Origin: Pseudomonadota bacterium
GTDB lineage: Bacteria; Chloroflexota; Ktedonobacteria; Ktedonobacterales; JACDGC01
Assembly: GCA_021323815.1 (NCBI GenBank)
Contig: JAJPKG010000422.1
Location: forward strand, 1-33,289
DNA: 33,289 nucleotides
Direction of reading: 5' to 3'
Of the stretch, positions 9,486-31,694 are shown one piece after another. Position numbers and translations under genes: made by a program. Each line of letters begins with the position of its first letter. Position 1 is the stretch's first letter. The notes beneath the pieces were generated by a model that saw only the letters and a list, made by a program, of their open reading frames with translations, was not told where the DNA came from and searched no databases.

Positions 9486-9545
9486 CGCCGGGAGTTCAAC
9501 CTCCCGGCTCGGAACAGAAACCCCGCTTGGCTGTAAGCGGGTTTA
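9486..9545 (-). repeat. REP-A double-hairpin element, copy 2 (between convergent genes)
   Basis: CGCCGGGAGTTCAACCTCCCGGCTCGGAACAGAAACCCCGCTTGGCTG is nearly collinear with 23711-23759. Its second hairpin, CCCGCTT-GGCTGT-AAGCGGG followed by TTTA, can act as a terminator for the 8202-9446 gene. Confidence 0.75.
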
Positions 9546-20386: not shown

Positions 20387-20710
20387 ATGTCCCACCAGAT
20401 GATGATTACCCTAACGGATCAAGAATATGCCGCGCTTCAAGCTGAGGCAGAGCGCTCAGGTCAGCCGCTGGAAGCACTGGTGCATGCTGCGCTTGCCCCC
20501 CTTATGAGGGATGAAGCGCCCACCACTGCGCCTATGACCGAGCGAGAGTTCGCGGAATATCTCTTCCGCAAAGGCGTCACCATGAACGTTGCCACTCACG
20601 AGCCGCTTGATCCTGATGAAGAAGCGGAATTAGAAGCACTAGCCCAGCTGTTTTCTGGAGGCAAACCAGCTTCAGAAATGGTTATTGAGGATCGAGGGCC
20701 GCGCGAGTGA
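20387..20710 (+). CDS. vapB: Type II antitoxin (VapB-like, partner of the PIN toxin)
   Basis: ATG 20387 with TAGGAGG 6 nt upstream. N-terminus MITLTDQEYAALQAEAERSGQPLEALV resembles a ribbon-helix-helix/Phd-type DNA-binding N-terminus. The stop overlaps the toxin start (GTGA). Confidence 0.65.
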   Translation: MSHQMMITLTDQEYAALQAEAERSGQPLEALVHAALAPLMRDEAPTTAPMTEREFAEYLFRKGVTMNVATHEPLDPDEEAELEALAQLFSGGKPASEMVIEDRGPRE

Positions 20711-21171
20711 GCACATTTTTCTTGGATACCTCAGCTCTCATCAAGCATTATGTGGTTGAGCAAGGGCACGCTTGGATGAAATCTCTTTGCGATCGGTCTC
20801 AGGGGCACCAGTTGTTTATTTCACAAGTGGCCTTGATCGAAGTGGTGGCGACGCTTTGCCGTAAAGCGCGAGAACAAAGCATATCTATTAGCCGTCGTGA
20901 TGCGCTCATAGATTTGTTTTCGCGCCATCGTCGCAAATCCTATGAGATGGTGCGCGTCACCAACGCGATTTACCTTGCGGCGGGAAATCTGTGCCGGAAC
21001 CACAAGCTACGGGCCTATGATGCTATCCAGATGGCCTGCGCGCTAGCTGTGCGCGCTGATGCTGTCTCGCGGAATATGCCTGTTCCCATGTTCGTATGTG
21101 CTGATAGCGCTTTGTTGGCGGTTGCTGCGGCTGAAGGAATGCCAACCGATAACCCCAACAACCACCCATAG
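20707..21171 (+). CDS. vapC: PIN-domain toxin, VapC family
   Basis: FFLDTSALIKHYVVE (first acidic PIN motif), LRAYDAIQMACA, and a 4-bp overlap with the upstream small gene. AT-richer island. Confidence 0.85.
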   Translation: MSTFFLDTSALIKHYVVEQGHAWMKSLCDRSQGHQLFISQVALIEVVATLCRKAREQSISISRRDALIDLFSRHRRKSYEMVRVTNAIYLAAGNLCRNHKLRAYDAIQMACALAVRADAVSRNMPVPMFVCADSALLAVAAAEGMPTDNPNNHP

Positions 21172-21671: not shown

Positions 21672-23519
21672 ATGCCCGAAGATGTCGCGCAAGAGTTTAG
21701 TTCGTCGGTGAACTATACGCCCATTCAGCGCATGCGCCATTCGGCGGCGCACGTGATGGCCGAGGCCATTCAGGATATGTTCCCGGATGCCAAGTTCGCC
21801 ATCGGTCCGGCCATCGAGGATGGCTTTTACTATGACATGGAGTTGCCGCGCACACTGACGCCGGAAGATTTCCCGGCCATCGAAGCGCGGATGGCGGAAA
21901 GCATCGCCAAGAAGCATCCCTTCGTGCAGTCGCGGTGGCCCCGCGAAAAAGCGCTGGCCTATTTCCGCGAGAAGAACCAGCCCTATAAGGTTGAGATCAT
22001 CGAGAGCCTGCCGGACGCCGAGGTGGGCATCTATCAGCAGGGGCCGTTTCTGGATCTCTGTCGCGGGCCGCACGTGGAAAACACGGGACAGATCGGTCCT
22101 TTCAAGCTGATGCGCGTGGCGGGGGCCTATTGGCGCGGCGATGAGAAGCGCCCTATGCTCCAGCGCCTTTATGGCACGGCGTGGTTCACGCAGGAAGAAC
22201 TGGATACATATCTCTGGCAGCTTGAAGAAGCCAAAAAGCGCGATCACCGCAAGCTGGGCCGCGAACTGGGTTTGTTCACGTTCAGCGAAGATGTGGGACC
22301 CGGCATCCCGCTCTTCTTGCCCAAAGGCGAGATGCTGCGGCATTTGATGGAATCCTATGTGCGCGAGACACAGGAGCGCTATGGCTATCAGCACGTGTGG
22401 ACGGGCAACATCGCCCGTGTGCGGCTCTATAAAACGTCGAAGCACTGGTACCACTATCGCGAGGGCATGTTCCCCAAGATGGAGGAGGAGCGCGACCTGC
22501 GCGAGGGCGAGACGCCGGAAGAAGCCGAGAACAACAGCTTCGAGTTGAAGCCGATGAACTGCCCGTCGCACTTCATCCTCTATAAATCGCAGCGCCACAG
22601 CTATCGTGAGCTGCCCATCCGCTATGCCGAGTTCGCCACGCTCTATCGGTATGAGAAGCAGGGCGAATTGTCGGGCCTGACGCGCGTGCGCGCCCTGACG
22701 CAGGACGATTCGCACATCATCCTGCGTCACGATCAAGTGATGGACGAATTCAGTCGCATCGTGGATCTGGTGCGCGAGATCCTCACGACGTATGGGCTGA
22801 CGGATTACAGCGTGCGCCTGTCGCTGCCGGATCTGTCTGATTCCGAGAAATATCACGGCAACGTGGAGATCTGGGAGCGCGCGGTGGCCGACCTGCGTGC
22901 GGCGCTGGATAGCAAGGGGTTGGCCTATGAGGCAGTGGAAGGCGAAGCGGCCTTTTATGGTCCCAAGATGGACCTGATGGCCCGCGACGCGCTGGGCCGC
23001 GAGTGGCAGCTTTCCACGATTCAACTCGATTTCTTCCAGCCGGAAAATTTCGAGTTGGAATATATCGGCGAGGACGGCCAGGCGCATCGCCCTGCCGTCA
23101 TTCACCGCGCCATCATGGGATCAACGGAGCGCTTCCTGGGCGTGCTGATCGAGCATTACGGTGGCAACTTCCCCCTGTGGCTCGCGCCGGTGCAGGCTGA
23201 GGTCATCCCCATCGCGGATCGCCATCTGCCGTATGCTGGGCACGTGGCTGCACGGCTGCGCGAGGCTGGCTTGCGCGCCGAGGTGGATTCGCGCAGCGAG
23301 CGCATGAACGCCAAAGTGCGCGACGCCCAGATGCAAAAGATCCCCTATATGCTCGTCGTCGGCGACAAAGAGGCGGAATCCGAATCCGTCAGCCTGCGCC
23401 TGCGTACGAACGAAAACATCGGCGCGGTGCCGTTGGAACAGTTCATCGAGCGCGCCAGTGCCCTCAACCGCGCCCGCAGCCAGGATCTGTGGGTGACGGA
23501 AGCGCCGGTGGGGGAATAG
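21672..23519 (+). CDS. thrS: Threonine--tRNA ligase lacking the N-terminal TGS domain
   Basis: MRHSAAHVMAEAIQDMFPDAKFAIGPAIEDGFYYD (editing-domain HxxxH block) begins at residue 21. Class II motifs are present: FELKPMNCPSH, FATLYRYEKQGELSGLTRVRALTQDDSHI, GEAAFYGPKMD and HRAIMGSTERF. An anticodon-binding C-terminus is present. Confidence 0.95.
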   Translation: MPEDVAQEFSSSVNYTPIQRMRHSAAHVMAEAIQDMFPDAKFAIGPAIEDGFYYDMELPRTLTPEDFPAIEARMAESIAKKHPFVQSRWPREKALAYFREKNQPYKVEIIESLPDAEVGIYQQGPFLDLCRGPHVENTGQIGPFKLMRVAGAYWRGDEKRPMLQRLYGTAWFTQEELDTYLWQLEEAKKRDHRKLGRELGLFTFSEDVGPGIPLFLPKGEMLRHLMESYVRETQERYGYQHVWTGNIARVRLYKTSKHWYHYREGMFPKMEEERDLREGETPEEAENNSFELKPMNCPSHFILYKSQRHSYRELPIRYAEFATLYRYEKQGELSGLTRVRALTQDDSHIILRHDQVMDEFSRIVDLVREILTTYGLTDYSVRLSLPDLSDSEKYHGNVEIWERAVADLRAALDSKGLAYEAVEGEAAFYGPKMDLMARDALGREWQLSTIQLDFFQPENFELEYIGEDGQAHRPAVIHRAIMGSTERFLGVLIEHYGGNFPLWLAPVQAEVIPIADRHLPYAGHVAARLREAGLRAEVDSRSERMNAKVRDAQMQKIPYMLVVGDKEAESESVSLRLRTNENIGAVPLEQFIERASALNRARSQDLWVTEAPVGE

Positions 23520-24059: not shown

Positions 24060-26033
24060 ATGGGGTGGAGTGAACTCATCGGCTCAACCTTCGGTGACGA
24101 CGAGCATCGCTATGTCATCGAGGAAGAGATCGCACGCGGGGGCATGTCGCGCGTCTATCGCGCCCGCGAAGAAGGAGCCGACCGCGTGGTGGCACTGAAG
24201 GTGATGGCGCTGGGCAGCGAGGGCGGCGGCGACACGCGCAACTTCACGCGCCGCTTCGAGCATGAGGCCCGCGCCGTGGAACGGCTGGACCACCCCAACA
24301 TCGTCAAGGTCTTCGCCACCGGCCAAACGGATGATTTCGTCTTCATCGCCATGCAGTTAGTGTTGGGCGGCACCTTTCGCCAGCGGCTGGGCAAACCCAT
24401 GCCCGTCGCCGACGCCTGCTATGCCATGATTCAGATGGCAAAGGCGCTGCACCATGCCCACTTGCATCACGTCATCCACCGCGACGTGAAGCCGGCGTAT
24501 ATGCTCATCGACGACCGCGATCCCTCGCACCTGCTGCTGGCAGATTTCGGCATTGCCAAGATCATCGGGCAAGAGGGCGTGACCAAAACCGGCACCGCCG
24601 TCGGCACACCGGAATATATGGCACCTGAGCAGGCGAAAGGCGAAAAGATCGATCCCCGCGCCGACATCTATGGTCTGGCGTGCGTGCTGTATGAGGCGTT
24701 GGCGGGGCGACCGCCCTTCGTTGGCCCCACCGCGCTATCGATCTGCTATCAGCACGTTCACACGCGCCCGGCGTATATTCGCGGCTTTAATCCAGAGGTG
24801 CCGCGCGCTCTGGCGCTGGTAATCGAGCAGGCGCTGGCGAAGAATCCCCGCGATCGGTTCCCGACGGCGGAAGATTTTGCCAACGCGCTGTACCCCTTCA
24901 CTGAAGGAACGGGACGCGGCATTCGCCCGACGACGCCGGCACTGAGCCTGAACACCAGCGAAGATGAAGACGCTGCACTCGTATCCCCCAGCGATGGTGG
25001 GACGAATCCGGCGGAAGCGCTGATGCTGCCCACCACCCCCCCGCCGCTGGAAAGTTCTGCCGCCGGCAGTGCCGCCCCCACCGGGGATGCTTCGGCCATG
25101 CTGGATCTTTCCTCGCTGTCAACGCGCTCGGCCCCAGCGGTGAACGCGCCGGAAGACGCGACGACGGTGCAGACGCAGGAAATGACGCCCATCAGCCAGC
25201 CCGCGCGCCCGCGCCACACGCGCCCGGTGGGACCGAACGTGCGTCTGAAGAGCCGGCCCATCACGCATCCTCGTGAGGGTGGGTCATATCCGCCGCCGGG
25301 GTCATATCCCCCACCCTCGCAGCAAGGCGCATCTGCGCCAAAGTTCGATCCGGATGATGCGTCACTCTTCCCAACGGTACAGACGCCGGTCACACCGCTG
25401 GGAACCATCAAACCGCCGTCGAAGAAGCTGCCGGACTATAGCGGCACGTCTAGCCAGCCGTCAAGCCAGCGGATCTTCATCCTGGTCGCCGCCGCGCTGG
25501 TGGTGGCACTGATCGCGCTGTTGCTGTTGAGCCGCGTCCATACCGGCCCCGGCACGTCGTCCACTCTCGGTAATGGCACCACGCCCGCTGCGACCACCAC
25601 GCCCGCAACGCAGCCCACCACTGCGCCAACCGTCGCTCCGACACCACAACCAGGCACCACGCCGACGCAGCCGGTGATCGGGCAGCCCACACAGCCACCG
25701 CCAGTTAATCCATCTAAAATCGTAATGGCGACTGCAACTGGCAATACCCCCGATCTGTCGTGTAATCCTTCGTTGAGTCGCCAAACCTTTCCTACAGGTA
25801 CGACCCTATATATCAACGCCTGTGTTGTTGCAGGATATGGCATAGCTACGATTCAGGCGCGACTCTATCAACAAAATGGGCAGCCGACTAATATTCAAGC
25901 CTTTCGCGTCACTCAAGGCAACAAGGCTGAGGCGTTCTCACTGGATTTACAGACTCCACCAAGCGGTGTCTATGTTGCGGTTGTGACATGGAATGGGTAT
26001 GTAGCGAAAAGGTTGCCTATAACCATTCAGTAG
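24060..26033 (+). CDS. Hanks-type Ser/Thr protein kinase with one TM helix, a Pro/Thr-rich linker and a small extracellular C-terminal domain
   Basis: IARGGMSRVY (Gly loop), VALKVM, HRDVKPAYM (catalytic loop, with Tyr where Asn is expected), LADFGIAK, GTPEYMAPEQ, TM helix IFILVAAALVVALIALLLL, and a PTxP-rich linker. ATG 24060 is preferred over 23919. Confidence 0.9.
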   Translation: MGWSELIGSTFGDDEHRYVIEEEIARGGMSRVYRAREEGADRVVALKVMALGSEGGGDTRNFTRRFEHEARAVERLDHPNIVKVFATGQTDDFVFIAMQLVLGGTFRQRLGKPMPVADACYAMIQMAKALHHAHLHHVIHRDVKPAYMLIDDRDPSHLLLADFGIAKIIGQEGVTKTGTAVGTPEYMAPEQAKGEKIDPRADIYGLACVLYEALAGRPPFVGPTALSICYQHVHTRPAYIRGFNPEVPRALALVIEQALAKNPRDRFPTAEDFANALYPFTEGTGRGIRPTTPALSLNTSEDEDAALVSPSDGGTNPAEALMLPTTPPPLESSAAGSAAPTGDASAMLDLSSLSTRSAPAVNAPEDATTVQTQEMTPISQPARPRHTRPVGPNVRLKSRPITHPREGGSYPPPGSYPPPSQQGASAPKFDPDDASLFPTVQTPVTPLGTIKPPSKKLPDYSGTSSQPSSQRIFILVAAALVVALIALLLLSRVHTGPGTSSTLGNGTTPAATTTPATQPTTAPTVAPTPQPGTTPTQPVIGQPTQPPPVNPSKIVMATATGNTPDLSCNPSLSRQTFPTGTTLYINACVVAGYGIATIQARLYQQNGQPTNIQAFRVTQGNKAEAFSLDLQTPPSGVYVAVVTWNGYVAKRLPITIQ

Positions 26034-26049
26034 AATCAGACAAGCGTTT

Positions 26050-26101
26050 CCGCGCTGGGAGGTTTAGCTCCCGGCGCGGAAACGCGAACCCCTCTGGGCT
26101 G
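26050..26101 (-). repeat. REP-A double-hairpin element, copy 6
   Basis: CCGCGCTGGGAGGTTTAGCTCCCGGCGCGGAAACGCGAACCCCTCTGGGCTG, starting 17 nt after the kinase stop. Confidence 0.75.
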
Positions 26102-26156
26102 TGATGGACGGTGATCGCGTTGAATGAGCGTGATTGCCGGGCACGAGGTTGGGCGC

Positions 26157-26266
26157 GATTCATCACGCCCCTACACAGATCGGCGCAATATCGTGGATGG
26201 CAAGCGAGCAATAGCATATCCATCGGTTGATACGCTGGGCCATCTTCGTAGGGGCGTGATTTATCG
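26157..26266. repeat. REP-B palindromic element (inverted GTAGGGGCGTGAT units)
   Basis: GATTCATCACGCCCCTAC (26157-26174) and GTAGGGGCGTGATTTATC (26249-26266) are inverted copies with 16/18 complementary positions. Confidence 0.7.
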
Positions 26267-26320
26267 TGTCCAATCCCACGCCACACCACCAACCTTGCCA
26301 CGCGCGATTATCTTCTACTT

Positions 26321-26370
26321 CAGCCCAGGCGGGCTTTCTTTTTCGAGCCGGGCGGCTTTAGCCCCCGGCG
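26321..26370 (+). repeat. REP-A double-hairpin element, copy 7
   Basis: CAGCCCAGGCGGGCTTTCTTTTTCGAGCCGGGCGGCTTTAGCCCCCGGCG. Confidence 0.8.
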
Positions 26371-26427
26371 ACCTCGCCATTCATGAACCTTCTTTCGCCC
26401 GATTTTCTTCTCTTTCTCATCTTCCCC

Positions 26428-26458
26428 TTGACTTTACCCCCCCGCGTGTGACTATACT
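26428..26458 (+). promoter_or_regulatory. Candidate promoter of the rtcB leader unit
   Basis: TTGACT (26428-26433), a 19-nt spacer (longer than optimal), then TATACT (26453-26458). The -10 hexamer is the same as at the thrS leader promoter. Confidence 0.4.
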
Positions 26459-26464
26459 CTGAGC

Positions 26465-26712
26465 AGAATTCTGCAAGAAAGGGGTACCTCGGCCATGACG
26501 CAGTGGAATCATGACTATTCCATGCTCACCCAAAAGAGCAGCGACGTGTGCGCAGGAATGCTGCGTGGTTTTGTCCGCCCGCTCGCTATTAACCGTGCCT
26601 GGCCTGGGTACCTAAGACCCATAGACCGATGTTGAACCGGCTGCGTGCAAAGAACGGTCGCCCAGGTCAGGCGCGGAGAGCGAAATAAAAATGCTCTCCG
26701 CGCTTTCGTTTT
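26465..26712 (+). ncRNA. Candidate structured leader/sRNA (or 46-codon leader ORF) immediately upstream of rtcB
   Basis: Bounded by the candidate promoter and a perfect intrinsic terminator. Has a 12-bp long-range helix (26483-26494 with 26601-26612) and internal hairpins. No ORF of 60 aa or more. Contains an SD-preceded 46-codon ORF at 26495-26635. Confidence 0.45.
26671..26712 (+). terminator. Intrinsic terminator abutting the rtcB ribosome-binding site
   Basis: GCGCGGAGAGC (26671-26681) pairs perfectly with GCTCTCCGCGC (26693-26703). 11-nt loop, followed by TTTCGTTTT. Confidence 0.8.
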
Positions 26713-26730
26713 GTAAAGAGGGTATTGCAG

Positions 26731-28152
26731 GTGATTACTGGCAAGATCTTACGCGCGCATGGCTGGCCTGAGGGGAAAATGACCGGGCTGGCCAAGCGCA
26801 TCGCACAATCGCTGGAAGCCACAGGCGCGAGCGATGACGCGGTGCTGGCGGAATTGGACCGCGTACGCCAAACACCGGGCGACTTTGTGGATGACGCGCG
26901 CTTTGGCATGCTGGCGCGGGAGATCGTCAAGCGCGAGGCGAGCAAGCCGGAAGCTGAGGTGGGTTTGCGCGACGAGCCGCTGGATTACGCCGTGTGGGGT
27001 GCAGAGCAGATCGAAGCCGAGGCGCTGAACCAGATGCGCCGCGCGCTGCGCCTGCCGGTGGCGGTGGCGGGCGCGCTGATGCCGGATGCGCATGTGGGCT
27101 ATGGCCTGCCTATTGGCGGCGTGCTGGCGACGAGCGACGCGGTCATCCCCTATGCCGTCGGGGTAGACATCGCGTGTCGCATGCGCCTCTCGCTCTATGA
27201 CGAGCCACCGTCGATCTTGCACGAGCAGGGCGAGCGGTTGCAGAAAGCGCTGCTGAACTGGACGCGGTTCGGCCTTGACGGCAAGTGGGATGAACATGAC
27301 CTTCCCAAGCATGATGTGTTGGACGATCCAGCGTGGGAGTCCACGCGGCTGTTGAAGTCGCTGAAGGCGAAGGCACAGCGACAATTGGGCACTTCGGGGT
27401 CGGGGAATCACTTCGTCGAATGGGGCGTCTTCCAGCTCTACGACGATGATGCCCAACTGGGCCTCAAGGCCGGGCGCTATCTGGCGCTGCTTTCGCACAG
27501 CGGTTCGCGCGGTGTCGGCTTCAAGATCGCGAATACGTACACCGAGATTGCGAAGCGCATGCATCCGTCACTGGATAAGACCGTGCAACATCTCGCCTGG
27601 TTGCCGCTGGCATCTGAGGCGGGGCAGGAATATTGGATCTCGATGGAGATGGCGGGCAAGTTCGCTTCCGCCAACCACGAAGTCATTCATCGCCGCGTCG
27701 CCAAAGCGGCGGGGTTGGTGGAGATGGTGAAGGTCGAAAACCATCACAATTACGCTTGGTTGGAAACACTGGCGGACGGCACCCAGGCGATTGTGCATCG
27801 CAAGGGCGCGACGCCGGCAGGCGCGGGCATGTTAGGAATCATCCCTGGCTCGATGGGCGACGCGGGCTATGTGGTGCGCGGCAAGGGATCGGGCCGGGCA
27901 CTCAATTCGGCTTCGCACGGCGCGGGGCGCAAGATGAGCCGCAAGCAGGCGCTCGGCAGCATCACCAAGACCGCCCGCGATGCCTATCTGCGCGAACGCG
28001 GCGTGTCGCTGCTGGGCGGCACGCTGGATGAATCACCGCAAGCCTATAAAGATATCGAAGCGGTCATCGCTGCCCAGGAGGATCTGGTCGAGATCATCGG
28101 CAAGTTCACGCCGCGCATTGTGCGCATGGCGGATGAGGCCGGCGAGTTCTAG
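26731..28152 (+). CDS. rtcB: RNA 3'-phosphate/5'-OH ligase RtcB
   Basis: Conserved RtcB blocks PDAHVGYGLPIGGV, GSGNHFVEWG, LSHSGSRGVG, HHNYAW, IPGSMGD and SASHGAGR. GTG 26731 lies 8 nt after AAGAGGG; the in-frame TTG 26725 is the alternative. Confidence 0.92.
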   Translation: MITGKILRAHGWPEGKMTGLAKRIAQSLEATGASDDAVLAELDRVRQTPGDFVDDARFGMLAREIVKREASKPEAEVGLRDEPLDYAVWGAEQIEAEALNQMRRALRLPVAVAGALMPDAHVGYGLPIGGVLATSDAVIPYAVGVDIACRMRLSLYDEPPSILHEQGERLQKALLNWTRFGLDGKWDEHDLPKHDVLDDPAWESTRLLKSLKAKAQRQLGTSGSGNHFVEWGVFQLYDDDAQLGLKAGRYLALLSHSGSRGVGFKIANTYTEIAKRMHPSLDKTVQHLAWLPLASEAGQEYWISMEMAGKFASANHEVIHRRVAKAAGLVEMVKVENHHNYAWLETLADGTQAIVHRKGATPAGAGMLGIIPGSMGDAGYVVRGKGSGRALNSASHGAGRKMSRKQALGSITKTARDAYLRERGVSLLGGTLDESPQAYKDIEAVIAAQEDLVEIIGKFTPRIVRMADEAGEF

Positions 28153-28494: not shown

Positions 28495-28544
28495 CAGCCC
28501 GAATGGGCTTTGTCTTTCGAGCCGGGGAATAGAATTCCCCGGCG
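28495..28544 (+). repeat. REP-A double-hairpin element, copy 8
   Basis: CAGCCCGAATGGGCTTTGTCTTTCGAGCCGGGGAATAGAATTCCCCGGCG. Confidence 0.8.
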
Positions 28545-28616
28545 AGCTTCGCTGGCAACGGCCCTGCTCTGCGGAACCAGCAGTAACGATTCTCCCCGAT
28601 GAGAGGAGGTGGCTGA

Positions 28617-31647: not shown

Positions 31648-31694
31648 CGCCGGGGGTTAAATCCCCCGGCTCGTAAAAAAAGCCCCGATGGGCT
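31648..31694 (-). repeat. REP-A double-hairpin element, copy 9 (likely bidirectional terminator)
   Basis: CGCCGGGGGTTAAATCCCCCGGCTCGTAAAAAAAGCCCCGATGGGCT. Two hairpins flank an A7 tract (T7 on the other strand). Confidence 0.8.

Follow-up and report, generated by a model that had tools for sequence, protein, structure and literature searches.

To our knowledge, the RtcR system of Proteobacteria is the only one for which the induction of RtcB and the repair targets of this RNA ligase in vivo are understood. RtcR is a sigma-54 activator with a CARF domain that senses tRNA fragments, and RtcB in RtcR-rtcBA loci is reported to be induced upon damage to the translation apparatus (PMC7790460, PMC9650030, PMC5175333); induction of rtcB by impaired translation is also reported for E. 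coli and Anabaena (PMC5175333, PMC8421152). In rsr/YrlA/rtcB operons, a structured RNA adjoins rtcB. The closest precedent for the leader analyzed here is PA5471.1-armZ of Pseudomonas aeruginosa, where complete translation of the leader leads to termination and stalling leads to read-through into armZ. Ribosomes stall there in response to antibiotics that target them, or when SuhB or the tRNA CCA-adding enzyme is lost (PMC12057347, PMC13041342, PMC3516279). The logic is shared with the amino-acid attenuators trpL, hisL, leuL, pheL and thrL, in which the position of the ribosome on the leader ORF selects among an optional 1:2 helix, a 2:3 antiterminator and a 3:4 terminator (PMC1183508). The uORFs of bmrCD and vmlR (B. 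subtilis), mef/msr and mycobacterial whiB7 have no codon runs specific for an amino acid; there, a terminator is inactivated when ribosomes slow down or stall (PMC4191407, PMC9226507, PMC4335068, PMC10274678).

The window examined in this study (the whole 33,289-nt stretch of DNA analyzed; all features described below are on its forward strand) contains an rtcB gene whose leader is likely to be a ribosome-mediated (leader-peptide) transcription attenuator controlling that gene. Leader-peptide attenuation had been listed as an alternative in the original prediction for this locus, and it is now favored, as the Shine-Dalgarno sequence (SD), ATG, length and stop position of the leader ORF are kept and the ORF holds the 5' strand of a covarying antiterminator. 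As in PA5471.1-armZ, a short ORF and a segment 3/4 terminator precede an RtcB-family gene. However, PA5471.1 has 13 codons and lies approximately 250 bp from armZ, while the ORF of the rtcB leaders has 27-48 codons across loci and ends approximately 95 nt before rtcB. ArmZ, whose studied role is that of an anti-repressor of MexZ, is linked to the release-factor homologue PA5470; the RtcB of the window has no such neighbor and falls below the threshold of the PrfH-linked family TIGR03073 release_rtcB (148 bits against a cut-off of 271.8). The PA5471.1 and rtcB leaders most likely arose independently. The original prediction had called the element undescribed, which holds for Rfam and for the searched literature on rtcB with a leader peptide, attenuation, a uORF or a riboswitch, where no description of it was found, but not for its function, for which PA5471.1-armZ provides a precedent (PMC12057347, PMC13041342).

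The other known systems also differ from the window. In contrast to the amino-acid attenuators, the rtcB leader has no codon run for a single amino acid and precedes a ligase gene for RNA repair instead of a biosynthetic operon. In trp the stop codon separates segment 1 from segment 2, whereas segment 2 of the rtcB leader lies within the ORF and the stop codon falls in the antiterminator loop. Codon runs are likewise lacking in the bmrCD, vmlR, mef/msr and whiB7 uORFs, but these control resistance or stress regulators and have no sequence similarity to the rtcB leader. The RtcR-rtcBA system would have the same output as the leader, whose control would instead act in cis and at the RNA level. 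Although the window resembles rsr/YrlA operons in having a structured RNA next to rtcB, it lacks an Rsr gene, a tRNA-like module and an Rfam match, and its structured region is a terminator/antiterminator pair rather than the Ro-binding stem of those operons. Pfam scans of 20 ORFs in the window found no RtcR, RtcA, Rsr (TROVE) or sigma-54-type regulator, and ARAGORN found no tRNA or tmRNA, including a YrlA-type tRNA-like module, in agreement with the earlier claim that the known rtcB contexts (RtcR/rtcA and rsr/Y RNA) are absent. The genes 3' of rtcB are ABC-transporter genes.

The rtcB gene (26731-28152) encodes a protein of 473 aa from GTG 26731 that belongs to the RNA 3'-phosphate/5'-OH ligase family (Pfam RtcB, E = 2e-85), and its relatives in the PDB are RtcB proteins. 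Of the features proposed originally, the gene and its SD (AAGAGGGT, 26716-26723, 7 nt 5' of the GTG) stand, while of the two suggested start codons, TTG 26725 and GTG 26731, the latter is more likely to be the true start because it aligns with the ATG of orthologues. Further upstream, a repeated intergenic element (26322-26375) consists of the hairpin AGCCCAGGCGGGCT with a T-run, followed by the hairpin GAGCCGGG..CCCGGC. This element occurs in four copies in the window, another of which (28496-28550) lies directly 3' of rtcB. The upstream copy probably ends the transcript of the preceding kinase gene, in which case the leader would be its own transcription unit. The sigma-70-like promoter of the original prediction (26428-26458) is present in the sequence, with a -35 box TTGACT (26428-26433) and a -10 box TATACT (26453-26458), and its boxes are kept in the two closest relatives of the window, L001 and L002, which share the block CCTTGAC...TGTGACTATACT. 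Similar boxes, TTGC/TTGAC plus TGTGATAnAnT, occur in other loci. The consensus promoter scan, which covered spacers of 16-18 nt, made no call here because the spacer is 19 nt; an alternative reading, TGT-GACTAT at 26447-26455, has a spacer of 16 nt. The predicted transcription start lies near 26462-26466.

The same arrangement of SD, ATG, ORF and terminator was found at approximately 40 rtcB loci in metagenome-assembled genomes of Ktedonobacterales and Abditibacteriaceae. The carriers span two phyla (Chloroflexota, represented by Ktedonobacterales, and Abditibacteriota), with RtcB identities of 60-77%; a metagenome scan found no relative closer than L001, whose RtcB is 77% identical to that of the window, and neither the RtcB protein nor the leader peptide had an exact counterpart in public protein clusters. 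A covariance model built from the leaders and searched against 838 kb from 98 sources matched approximately 40 of these sources at E < 0.01, and at this threshold all plus-strand matches in the 838 kb lay 5' of rtcB. In this search, the leader was always directly 5' of rtcB or of an RNA-ligase operon and on the same strand; in three loci (L005, L089 and L120) it precedes RNA-ligase genes (RLIG1-like and T4 Rnl-like), which are followed by rtcB. Comparison with Rfam at the gathering score returned no matches for the whole window, and at E <= 10 only three chance-level matches (E of 2 to 7.8) were obtained for positions 26250-26800. The architecture upstream of orthologous rtcB genes, including the read-through geometry first proposed for the window, is conserved across loci, is accompanied by covariation in the clade of the window, and corresponds to no known Rfam family.

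The SD-preceded ORF of 46 codons described originally is present at 26495-26635 (ATG to TGA, MTQWNHDYSMLTQKSSDVCAGMLRGFVRPLAINRAWPGYLRPIDRC), with its SD (AAAGGGG, 26479-26485) 9 nt 5' of the ATG; L001 and L002 have AGGAG at the same spacing. Among 43 distinct leaders, the start codon was ATG in every case, and 40 had a GGAG or GAGG core 4-14 nt 5' of it, compared to 3% for other ATGs of the same regions. The distance from the leader stop codon to the terminator had a median of 23 nt (IQR 21-26), against 140 nt in the other two frames, although part of this regularity is built in, as the small ORFs were chosen partly by their SD and their nearness to the terminator. The expectation that the ORF would be conserved therefore holds for SD, ATG, length and stop position but not for the peptide, which has diverged beyond recognition among the 43 leaders and has no Pfam or NCBIfam match. 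Nine related leaders of 33 codons contain no frameshift, yet most of their changes are non-synonymous, and their variable columns (20, 20 and 15 by codon position) lack a third-position bias. In addition, the core CGTGCC sits in a different reading frame in one locus (L020), which argues that it is the RNA, and not the peptide, that is constrained. The idea of a small protein with a conserved function was rejected on the grounds of the unconserved peptides, the lack of third-position bias and the lack of family matches; judged by these patterns, the leader ORF behaves as one that is translated into a peptide without a function of its own.

The leader ORF contains no run of regulatory codons, but Gln, Asn and rare A/C-rich codons are over-represented in codons 2-16, with CAA enriched 6.5-fold. 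For the first 15 codons, the enrichment of Gln and Asn (CAA above all) is strong relative to the RtcB background but weak relative to out-of-frame controls (odds ratio of approximately 2, p of approximately 0.02, uncorrected), and it is confounded by the A/C-rich composition. Sensing of the four queuosine-tRNA amino acids, suggested by an N-H-D-Y run in the peptide of the window, was rejected, since these four residues taken together show no enrichment (15.2% versus 13.4%) and the motif does not occur in L001. At the end of the ORF, a hairpin with a predicted energy of -9.1 kcal/mol (26624-26659) encloses the TGA (26633-26635) and sits in the antiterminator loop, where a terminating ribosome would melt it; analogous stop-codon hairpins were seen by eye in two other loci (L003 and L004).

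The putative intrinsic terminator (26670-26712) has a 12-bp stem, an 11-nt loop and the T-run TTTCGTTTT (26704-26712). As predicted originally, the arms GCGCGGAGAGC (26671-26681) and GCTCTCCGCGC (26693-26703) form a perfect 11-bp stem and the T-run ends at 26712; the pair G26670-U26704 extends the stem to 12 bp, and the fold energy of the hairpin is -24.5 kcal/mol. The terminator scan missed this hairpin only because of its 11-nt loop. The base of the stem (GCGCGG/CCGCGC) is kept in more than 40 loci, while the upper stem covaries: in 15 leaders, pairing is kept in 95% of cells, and 11 double-sided changes were counted compared to 2.9 +/- 1.4 in shuffles, a contrast inflated by the relatedness of the sequences. 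Segment 3 (26660-26681) belongs to two structures, since 26670-26681 forms the 5' arm of the terminator and 26660-26676 is the 3' strand of an antiterminator. The 5' strand of the latter, segment 2 (CCGUGCCUGGCCUGGGU, 26593-26609), lies inside the leader ORF from codon 33 onward (R-A-W-P-G), and the two strands form 17 contiguous pairs that overlap 7 nt of the terminator stem base. The pairing of 26603-26608 with 26661-26666, proposed earlier as a minor alternative, is thus real, but as part of this 17-bp helix it is the central element of the leader.

Several lines of evidence support the antiterminator in the clade of the window, where the covariation of both helices is seen. Its duplex energy is -38.6 kcal/mol compared to -24.3 kcal/mol in shuffles, with z-scores of -4.2 for the window, -4.8 for L001 and -6.4 for L002, and none of 100 shuffles reached the observed value in any of the three. 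L001 carries a compensatory change (CCTGGG/CCCAGG to CTTGGG/CCCAAG). Across the same 15 leaders, 75% of cells are paired, compared to 35-44% with slid partners, and 31 double-sided changes were counted against 15.3 +/- 3.1 in shuffles, a total reached by 0 of 500 shuffles, although relatedness inflates this statistic as well. Many loci keep the core CCGTGCC of segment 2, whose complement is the GGCGCGG in the terminator arm; the conservation of both, otherwise puzzling, is explained by their pairing with each other. In the 'M.xARxQR' clade and many Abditibacteriaceae leaders, duplex energy shows a weak or undetected antiterminator (z near 0), and RNAalifold gives only imperfect consensus pairing in these clades.

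Computed folds show that a transcript ending before segment 4 adopts the antiterminator, while for the full leader the terminator state (-99.3 kcal/mol) and the forced antiterminator state (-93.3 kcal/mol) are nearly isoenergetic. The overall fold energy was rejected as evidence, as the MFE fold of the leader (-99.3 kcal/mol) has a z-score of -3.3 and the reverse strand a similar one of -3.1. Segment 1 (26483-26494) pairs with 26601-26612 (12 pairs, one mismatch). This long-range helix, which was part of the original prediction together with the hairpins it encloses, appears with them in the MFE fold of the window, but it is shared only with L001, where its bases have changed, and is absent from the MFE fold of L002; the enclosed hairpins are not conserved. 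Segment 1, which overlaps the SD-to-ATG spacer, is a possible anti-antiterminator.

In the attenuator proposed here, transcription would start at the conserved promoter, near 26462, and a ribosome would load at the SD and ATG (26479-26497) and translate the 46-codon ORF. The RNA could then take one of two exclusive folds, the antiterminator (26593-26609 with 26660-26676) or the terminator (26670-26681 with 26693-26704). A ribosome keeping pace with the polymerase would have reached segment 2 or the stop codon by the time segment 3 is transcribed; the antiterminator would be blocked, the terminator would form, and transcription would stop 18 nt before rtcB. If tRNA damage or shortage, damage to the ribosome or an inhibitor of translation left the ribosome stalled early in the ORF, lagging or absent, segment 2 would be free to capture the base of the terminator stem, and the polymerase would read through into rtcB. 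It is important to note that a ribosome at the stop codon of the window leaves segment 2 uncovered, with a gap of approximately 8-10 nt; it is assumed that this ribosome blocks the antiterminator by sitting in its loop, or that trailing ribosomes do so. In the window and L001, the helix 26483-26494/26601-26612 may sequester a portion of segment 2 as long as no ribosome has loaded. Given the absence of this helix from L002, the ribosome-free state may be one of either termination or read-through.

There are several potential explanations for such a leader other than attenuation by a translating ribosome. A riboswitch, or a leader that binds protein or RNA, would have no need of translation: a metabolite, a tRNA fragment, RtcB itself or another protein would be recognized by a domain closed by the helix 26483-26494/26601-26612, the terminator/antiterminator pair would serve equally well, and the small ORF would be incidental. 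The presence of the helix in the MFE folds of the window and L001 is consistent with this explanation, and the N-terminal extension of approximately 100 aa found in the RtcB family of the window might bind RNA. However, the putative aptamer region (26495-26590) is the least conserved part of the leader, with large indels, hairpins that are lost in L002 and sequences that cannot be aligned across clades, and the features that are conserved there (SD, ATG, open frame and stop position) are not required by a riboswitch. With the closing helix restricted to the window and L001, the enclosed hairpins unconserved and no matching Rfam family, the riboswitch-like reading of the original prediction is not supported, and a ligand-binding leader of any kind is considered unlikely. 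The covarying antiterminator also bears on whether the promoter, SD-preceded ORF and strong terminator, which amount to a complete unit, represent an independent small gene for a short protein or sRNA that merely adjoins rtcB, the latter being expressed without conditional control, either because the terminator leaks or from a different promoter. The distance between terminator and rtcB is 100-220 nt in several loci, leaving room for a separate promoter, but the T-run of the window ends only 18 nt before the rtcB start. The peptide is neither conserved nor under purifying selection and matches no family, an antiterminator that overlaps the terminator would have no role at a simple gene end, and the unit is always directly 5' of rtcB or an RNA-ligase operon on the same strand, all of which make an independent gene quite improbable.

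It could also be argued that the ORF is spurious and lies by chance between an ordinary promoter and a terminator, without regulatory meaning, given that the fold of the reverse strand is nearly as stable as that of the forward strand and that open frames are common in DNA of 58% G+C. The comparative sequence data already contradict such a chance array, which is hardly credible for an architecture that two phyla share at approximately 40 loci with RtcB identities of 60-77%, with two helices that covary and an antiterminator stronger than in shuffles. Within the favored explanation of ribosome-mediated attenuation, it is conceivable, though rather doubtful at present, that the leader serves specifically to sense when the translation apparatus is damaged and replaces the RtcR/CARF sensor in Ktedonobacteria and Abditibacteria. 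The first 10-30 codons, rich in Gln, Asn and rare codons, would sensitize the leading ribosome to the loss of particular tRNAs, for example through cutting by anticodon nucleases, and broken tRNA or rRNA would cause stalling and hence switch on the genes for RtcB and, in certain genomes, also for Rnl-type RNA ligases.

These findings point to a second solution for the control of RtcB, one that would operate wholly at the RNA level and make the transcription of RNA-repair ligases depend on how fast a ribosome moves along a short ORF. The leader would represent a new family of cis-regulatory RNAs of approximately 120-250 nt that is missing from Rfam, and an independent parallel to the PA5471.1-armZ attenuator of Pseudomonas. 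It would offer a compact reporter for translation stress and, if the sensor interpretation is correct, an easy way to read out which substrates bacterial RtcB acts on in nature. In some genomes, operons encoding two or three different RNA ligases would be under the control of the leader, which supports the view that these ligases serve the translation apparatus. If the leader is indeed an attenuator, the repair ligase would be made when protein synthesis falters.

The promoter, the terminator and the rtcB gene of the original prediction (26428-26733) are present as described. The -35 box TTGACT (26428-26433, + strand) and -10 box TATACT (26453-26458, +) are 19 nt apart, a spacing that explains why a consensus promoter scan of the window reported no promoter at the leader; an alternative reading, TGT-GACTAT, has a 16-nt spacer. 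Sequence and folding both show the terminator as a perfectly paired, G+C-rich hairpin (26671-26681 with 26693-26703, +), with a 12-bp stem when G26670-U26704 is counted and a folding energy of -24.5 kcal/mol. Only the size of its loop (11 nt) caused the terminator scan to overlook it, and TTTCGTTTT directly follows the hairpin. Pfam identifies the gene that follows as rtcB (RtcB, 2e-85), and the PDB relatives of its product are RtcB proteins without exception. Of the two proposed start codons, alignment with orthologues favors GTG 26731 as most likely over TTG 26725, so only 18 nt separate the T-run from the start. Ahead of the Pfam RtcB domain, the protein also carries a conserved extension of some 100 aa at its N terminus (26725-27030).

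The leader is probably a separate transcription unit, since a terminator-like repeat element (26322-26375) lies downstream of the Ser/Thr-kinase gene. The approximately 400 nt from this gene to the promoter (within 26034-26427) are probably non-coding; an ORF at 26124-26462 (+, 112 aa) has no match in Pfam or NCBIfam, and another at 26017-26301 (-, 94 aa) has none in Pfam. The repeat element consists of two hairpins, AGCCCnnnnGGGCT with a T-run and then GAGCCGGG...CCCGGC, and occurs four times in the window (9503-9524, -; 26322-26375, +; 28496-28550, +; 31665-31686, -) versus none expected by chance. The leader-rtcB unit sits between two of the copies, which share 77% identity across 111 nt; the element may belong to a terminator-type or REP-like class of repeats in this genome. 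Further upstream, 3-6 kb from the leader, are genes for a PIN-domain (VapC-like) protein (20707-21171, +) and threonyl-tRNA synthetase (21672-23519, +). Across the window Rfam gave zero matches at gathering score, and relaxing the limit to E <= 10 around the leader brought up matches at chance level only; a search for a tRNA-like gene found none, and RtcR, RtcA and Rsr, the known rtcB contexts, are absent among the 20 window ORFs scanned, as originally noted.

The competing 6-bp pairing first proposed between 26603-26608 and 26661-26666 is real, and is part of a 17-bp helix, three G-U pairs included, between 26593-26609 (CCGUGCCUGGCCUGGGU) and 26660-26676 (GCCCAGGUCAGGCGCGG). This helix was assigned as an antiterminator because its 3' strand takes up the seven basal nt of the terminator 5' arm. 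The 5' strand is contained in the 46-codon leader ORF, starting at codon 33, and the antiterminator loop includes a small hairpin that holds the stop codon of that ORF (26633-26635). The duplex is predicted at -38.6 kcal/mol versus -24.3 kcal/mol in dinucleotide shuffles of the ORF, none of which (0/100) reached the observed value. The antiterminator is the predicted fold of a transcript ending before the terminator 3' arm, and the full leader has similar energies in its terminator state (-99.3 kcal/mol) and when forced into the antiterminator state (-93.3 kcal/mol). Overall fold energy was dropped as a line of support, since a similar score is obtained for the reverse strand. The long-range helix of the original prediction (26483-26494 with 26601-26612) is kept with changed bases in L001, one of the related rtcB loci compared here, but not in L002, another; it may serve as an anti-antiterminator in the sub-clade of the window.

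Both helices covary. In an alignment of 15 leaders (A3), 75% of antiterminator cells are paired compared to 35-44% with slid partners, double-sided changes number 31 versus 15.3 +/- 3.1 in shuffles (0/500 reach 31), and the terminator is paired in 95% of cells with 11 double-sided changes versus 2.9 +/- 1.4, although these statistics are inflated by relatedness, and several rows are near-identical. The invariant cores CCGTGCC (ORF) and GGCGCGG (terminator arm) are mutually complementary, which explains why the terminator stem and a piece of an otherwise non-conserved ORF are kept across two phyla. Covariation of the antiterminator flanks differs in direction from clade to clade: CCTGGG/CCCAGG of the window is CTTGGG/CCCAAG in L001, while GGTATCCG pairs with CGGATGCC in L004 and CATCCGCGCCCG with CGGGCGCGGATG in L018.

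The closest RtcB orthologues, drawn from species-representative genomes and metagenomes, belong to Ktedonobacterales MAGs (<=77% identity), followed by Abditibacteriaceae (62-69%). L001 can be aligned along the whole window leader (74% identity over 284 nt); L002, and in part L004, also keep the CGTGCCTGG block along with the promoter boxes and the terminator. Across approximately 45 loci the same layout recurs, with a strong SD, an ATG, an ORF of 27-48 codons, a stop codon some 20-30 nt before the terminator, and rtcB 19-219 nt past it; the terminator stem base is always GCGCGG...CCGCGC, and variation in the upper stem is compensatory. A covariance model built from the 15 leaders has matches at E < 0.01 in roughly 40 of the 98 sources, and all plus-strand matches at this threshold in the 838 kb searched lie upstream of rtcB. 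At L005 (3916-7428), L089 (459-3925) and L120 (893-3338), the match (E 7e-10 to 3e-7) is 1.2-1.9 kb upstream of rtcB, and the intervening genes encode ATP-dependent RNA ligases (RLIG1-like, 202 aa; T4 Rnl1-like, 376 aa, with KxDG motifs). These are predicted multi-ligase operons under one leader, which ties the leader to RNA-repair ligase operons rather than to rtcB alone. At L059 (3342-5883, an Abditibacteriaceae contig), the leader match is about 1.5 kb ahead of where RtcB similarity starts (residue 151), and the coding appearance of the stretch between them suggests that rtcB carries an insertion, perhaps an intein; models of intein-containing RtcB exist in NCBIfam.

The leader ORF could encode a small functional protein, or the leader could be an untranslated aptamer; neither fits an ORF whose frame is kept while its peptides have diverged. 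Several features point to translation: all 43 distinct leaders start with ATG, 40 of them have a GGAG/GAGG core 4-14 nt ahead of it (versus 3% of the remaining ATGs in these regions), and the median distance from the last in-frame stop to the terminator stem downstream of it is 23 nt (IQR 21-26) versus 140 nt for the other two frames, a regularity that is in part a product of ORF selection. The sole indel between the window and L001 within the ORF is 3 nt, and nine related 33-codon leaders have zero frameshifts. The differences among these nine are mostly non-synonymous, with 20/20/15 variable columns by codon position; between clades the peptides defy alignment, L020 reads the CGTGCC core in another frame, and the leader peptide has zero matches in Pfam and NCBIfam. 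This fits a leader-peptide pattern, in which the ORF would be translated but the peptide itself would be unimportant. No codon runs were found in the leader ORFs. In 33 representative leader ORFs, codons 2-16 (window 26498-26542) are rich in A/C, poor in G and enriched in Gln, Asn and rare codons: CAA makes up 6.5% of codons versus 1.0% in RtcB genes (6.5-fold), AAT is 4.6-fold enriched, and CCA, TTT, ACA and CGA are also enriched. In-frame versus out-of-frame, this enrichment is weak (odds ratio about 2), and its source may equally be slow decoding or an unstructured region for ribosome loading. A second leader clade (L015, L017, L026, L027, L028, L052, L094) has an N-terminal M-(T/A)-x-A-R-x-Q-R motif, no CCGTGCC core and a weakly predicted antiterminator; the constraint on this motif may act on RNA, because it coincides with a small predicted hairpin, CAGCG...CGCTG.

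We propose that the leader acts by ribosome-mediated transcription attenuation. A ribosome close behind RNA polymerase would be on segment 2 (26593-26609), or at the stop codon in the antiterminator loop, as segment 3 (26660-26681) emerges, and with either site occupied the terminator would form. A ribosome stalled in the first ~27 codons, or lagging, would leave segment 2 free to capture the terminator stem base, and polymerase would proceed into rtcB. ORF layout, covariation and orthologue comparison support the leader-peptide form of the attenuator originally suggested, and a ribosome-dependent attenuator of rtcB is the likely reading; the remaining doubt stems in part from weaker antiterminator support in two clades.

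In the literature searched, rtcB of these phyla is nowhere linked to a leader. The nearest precedent is PA5471.1, a 13-codon leader of P. aeruginosa; its target armZ (PA5471) is described as an RNA ligase resembling RtcB, and control works through a four-segment attenuator with read-through on ribosome stalling, including that caused by defective tRNA 3' ends (PMC12057347, PMC3516279, PMC13041342). By comparison, the leader here is longer and differently positioned, and the window RtcB, scoring under the cut-off of the release-factor-linked family, is of another subfamily and has no prfH-like neighbor. Further functional analogues are the uORF attenuators that respond to translation stress at bmrCD, vmlR, mef/msr and whiB7. 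The physiological logic of the leader matches the induction of rtcB by impaired translation described for E. coli, where it acts through RtcR (PMC5175333), and for Anabaena (PMC8421152). Read as an attenuator, the element represents a fairly widespread new family whose mechanistic kind is already known.
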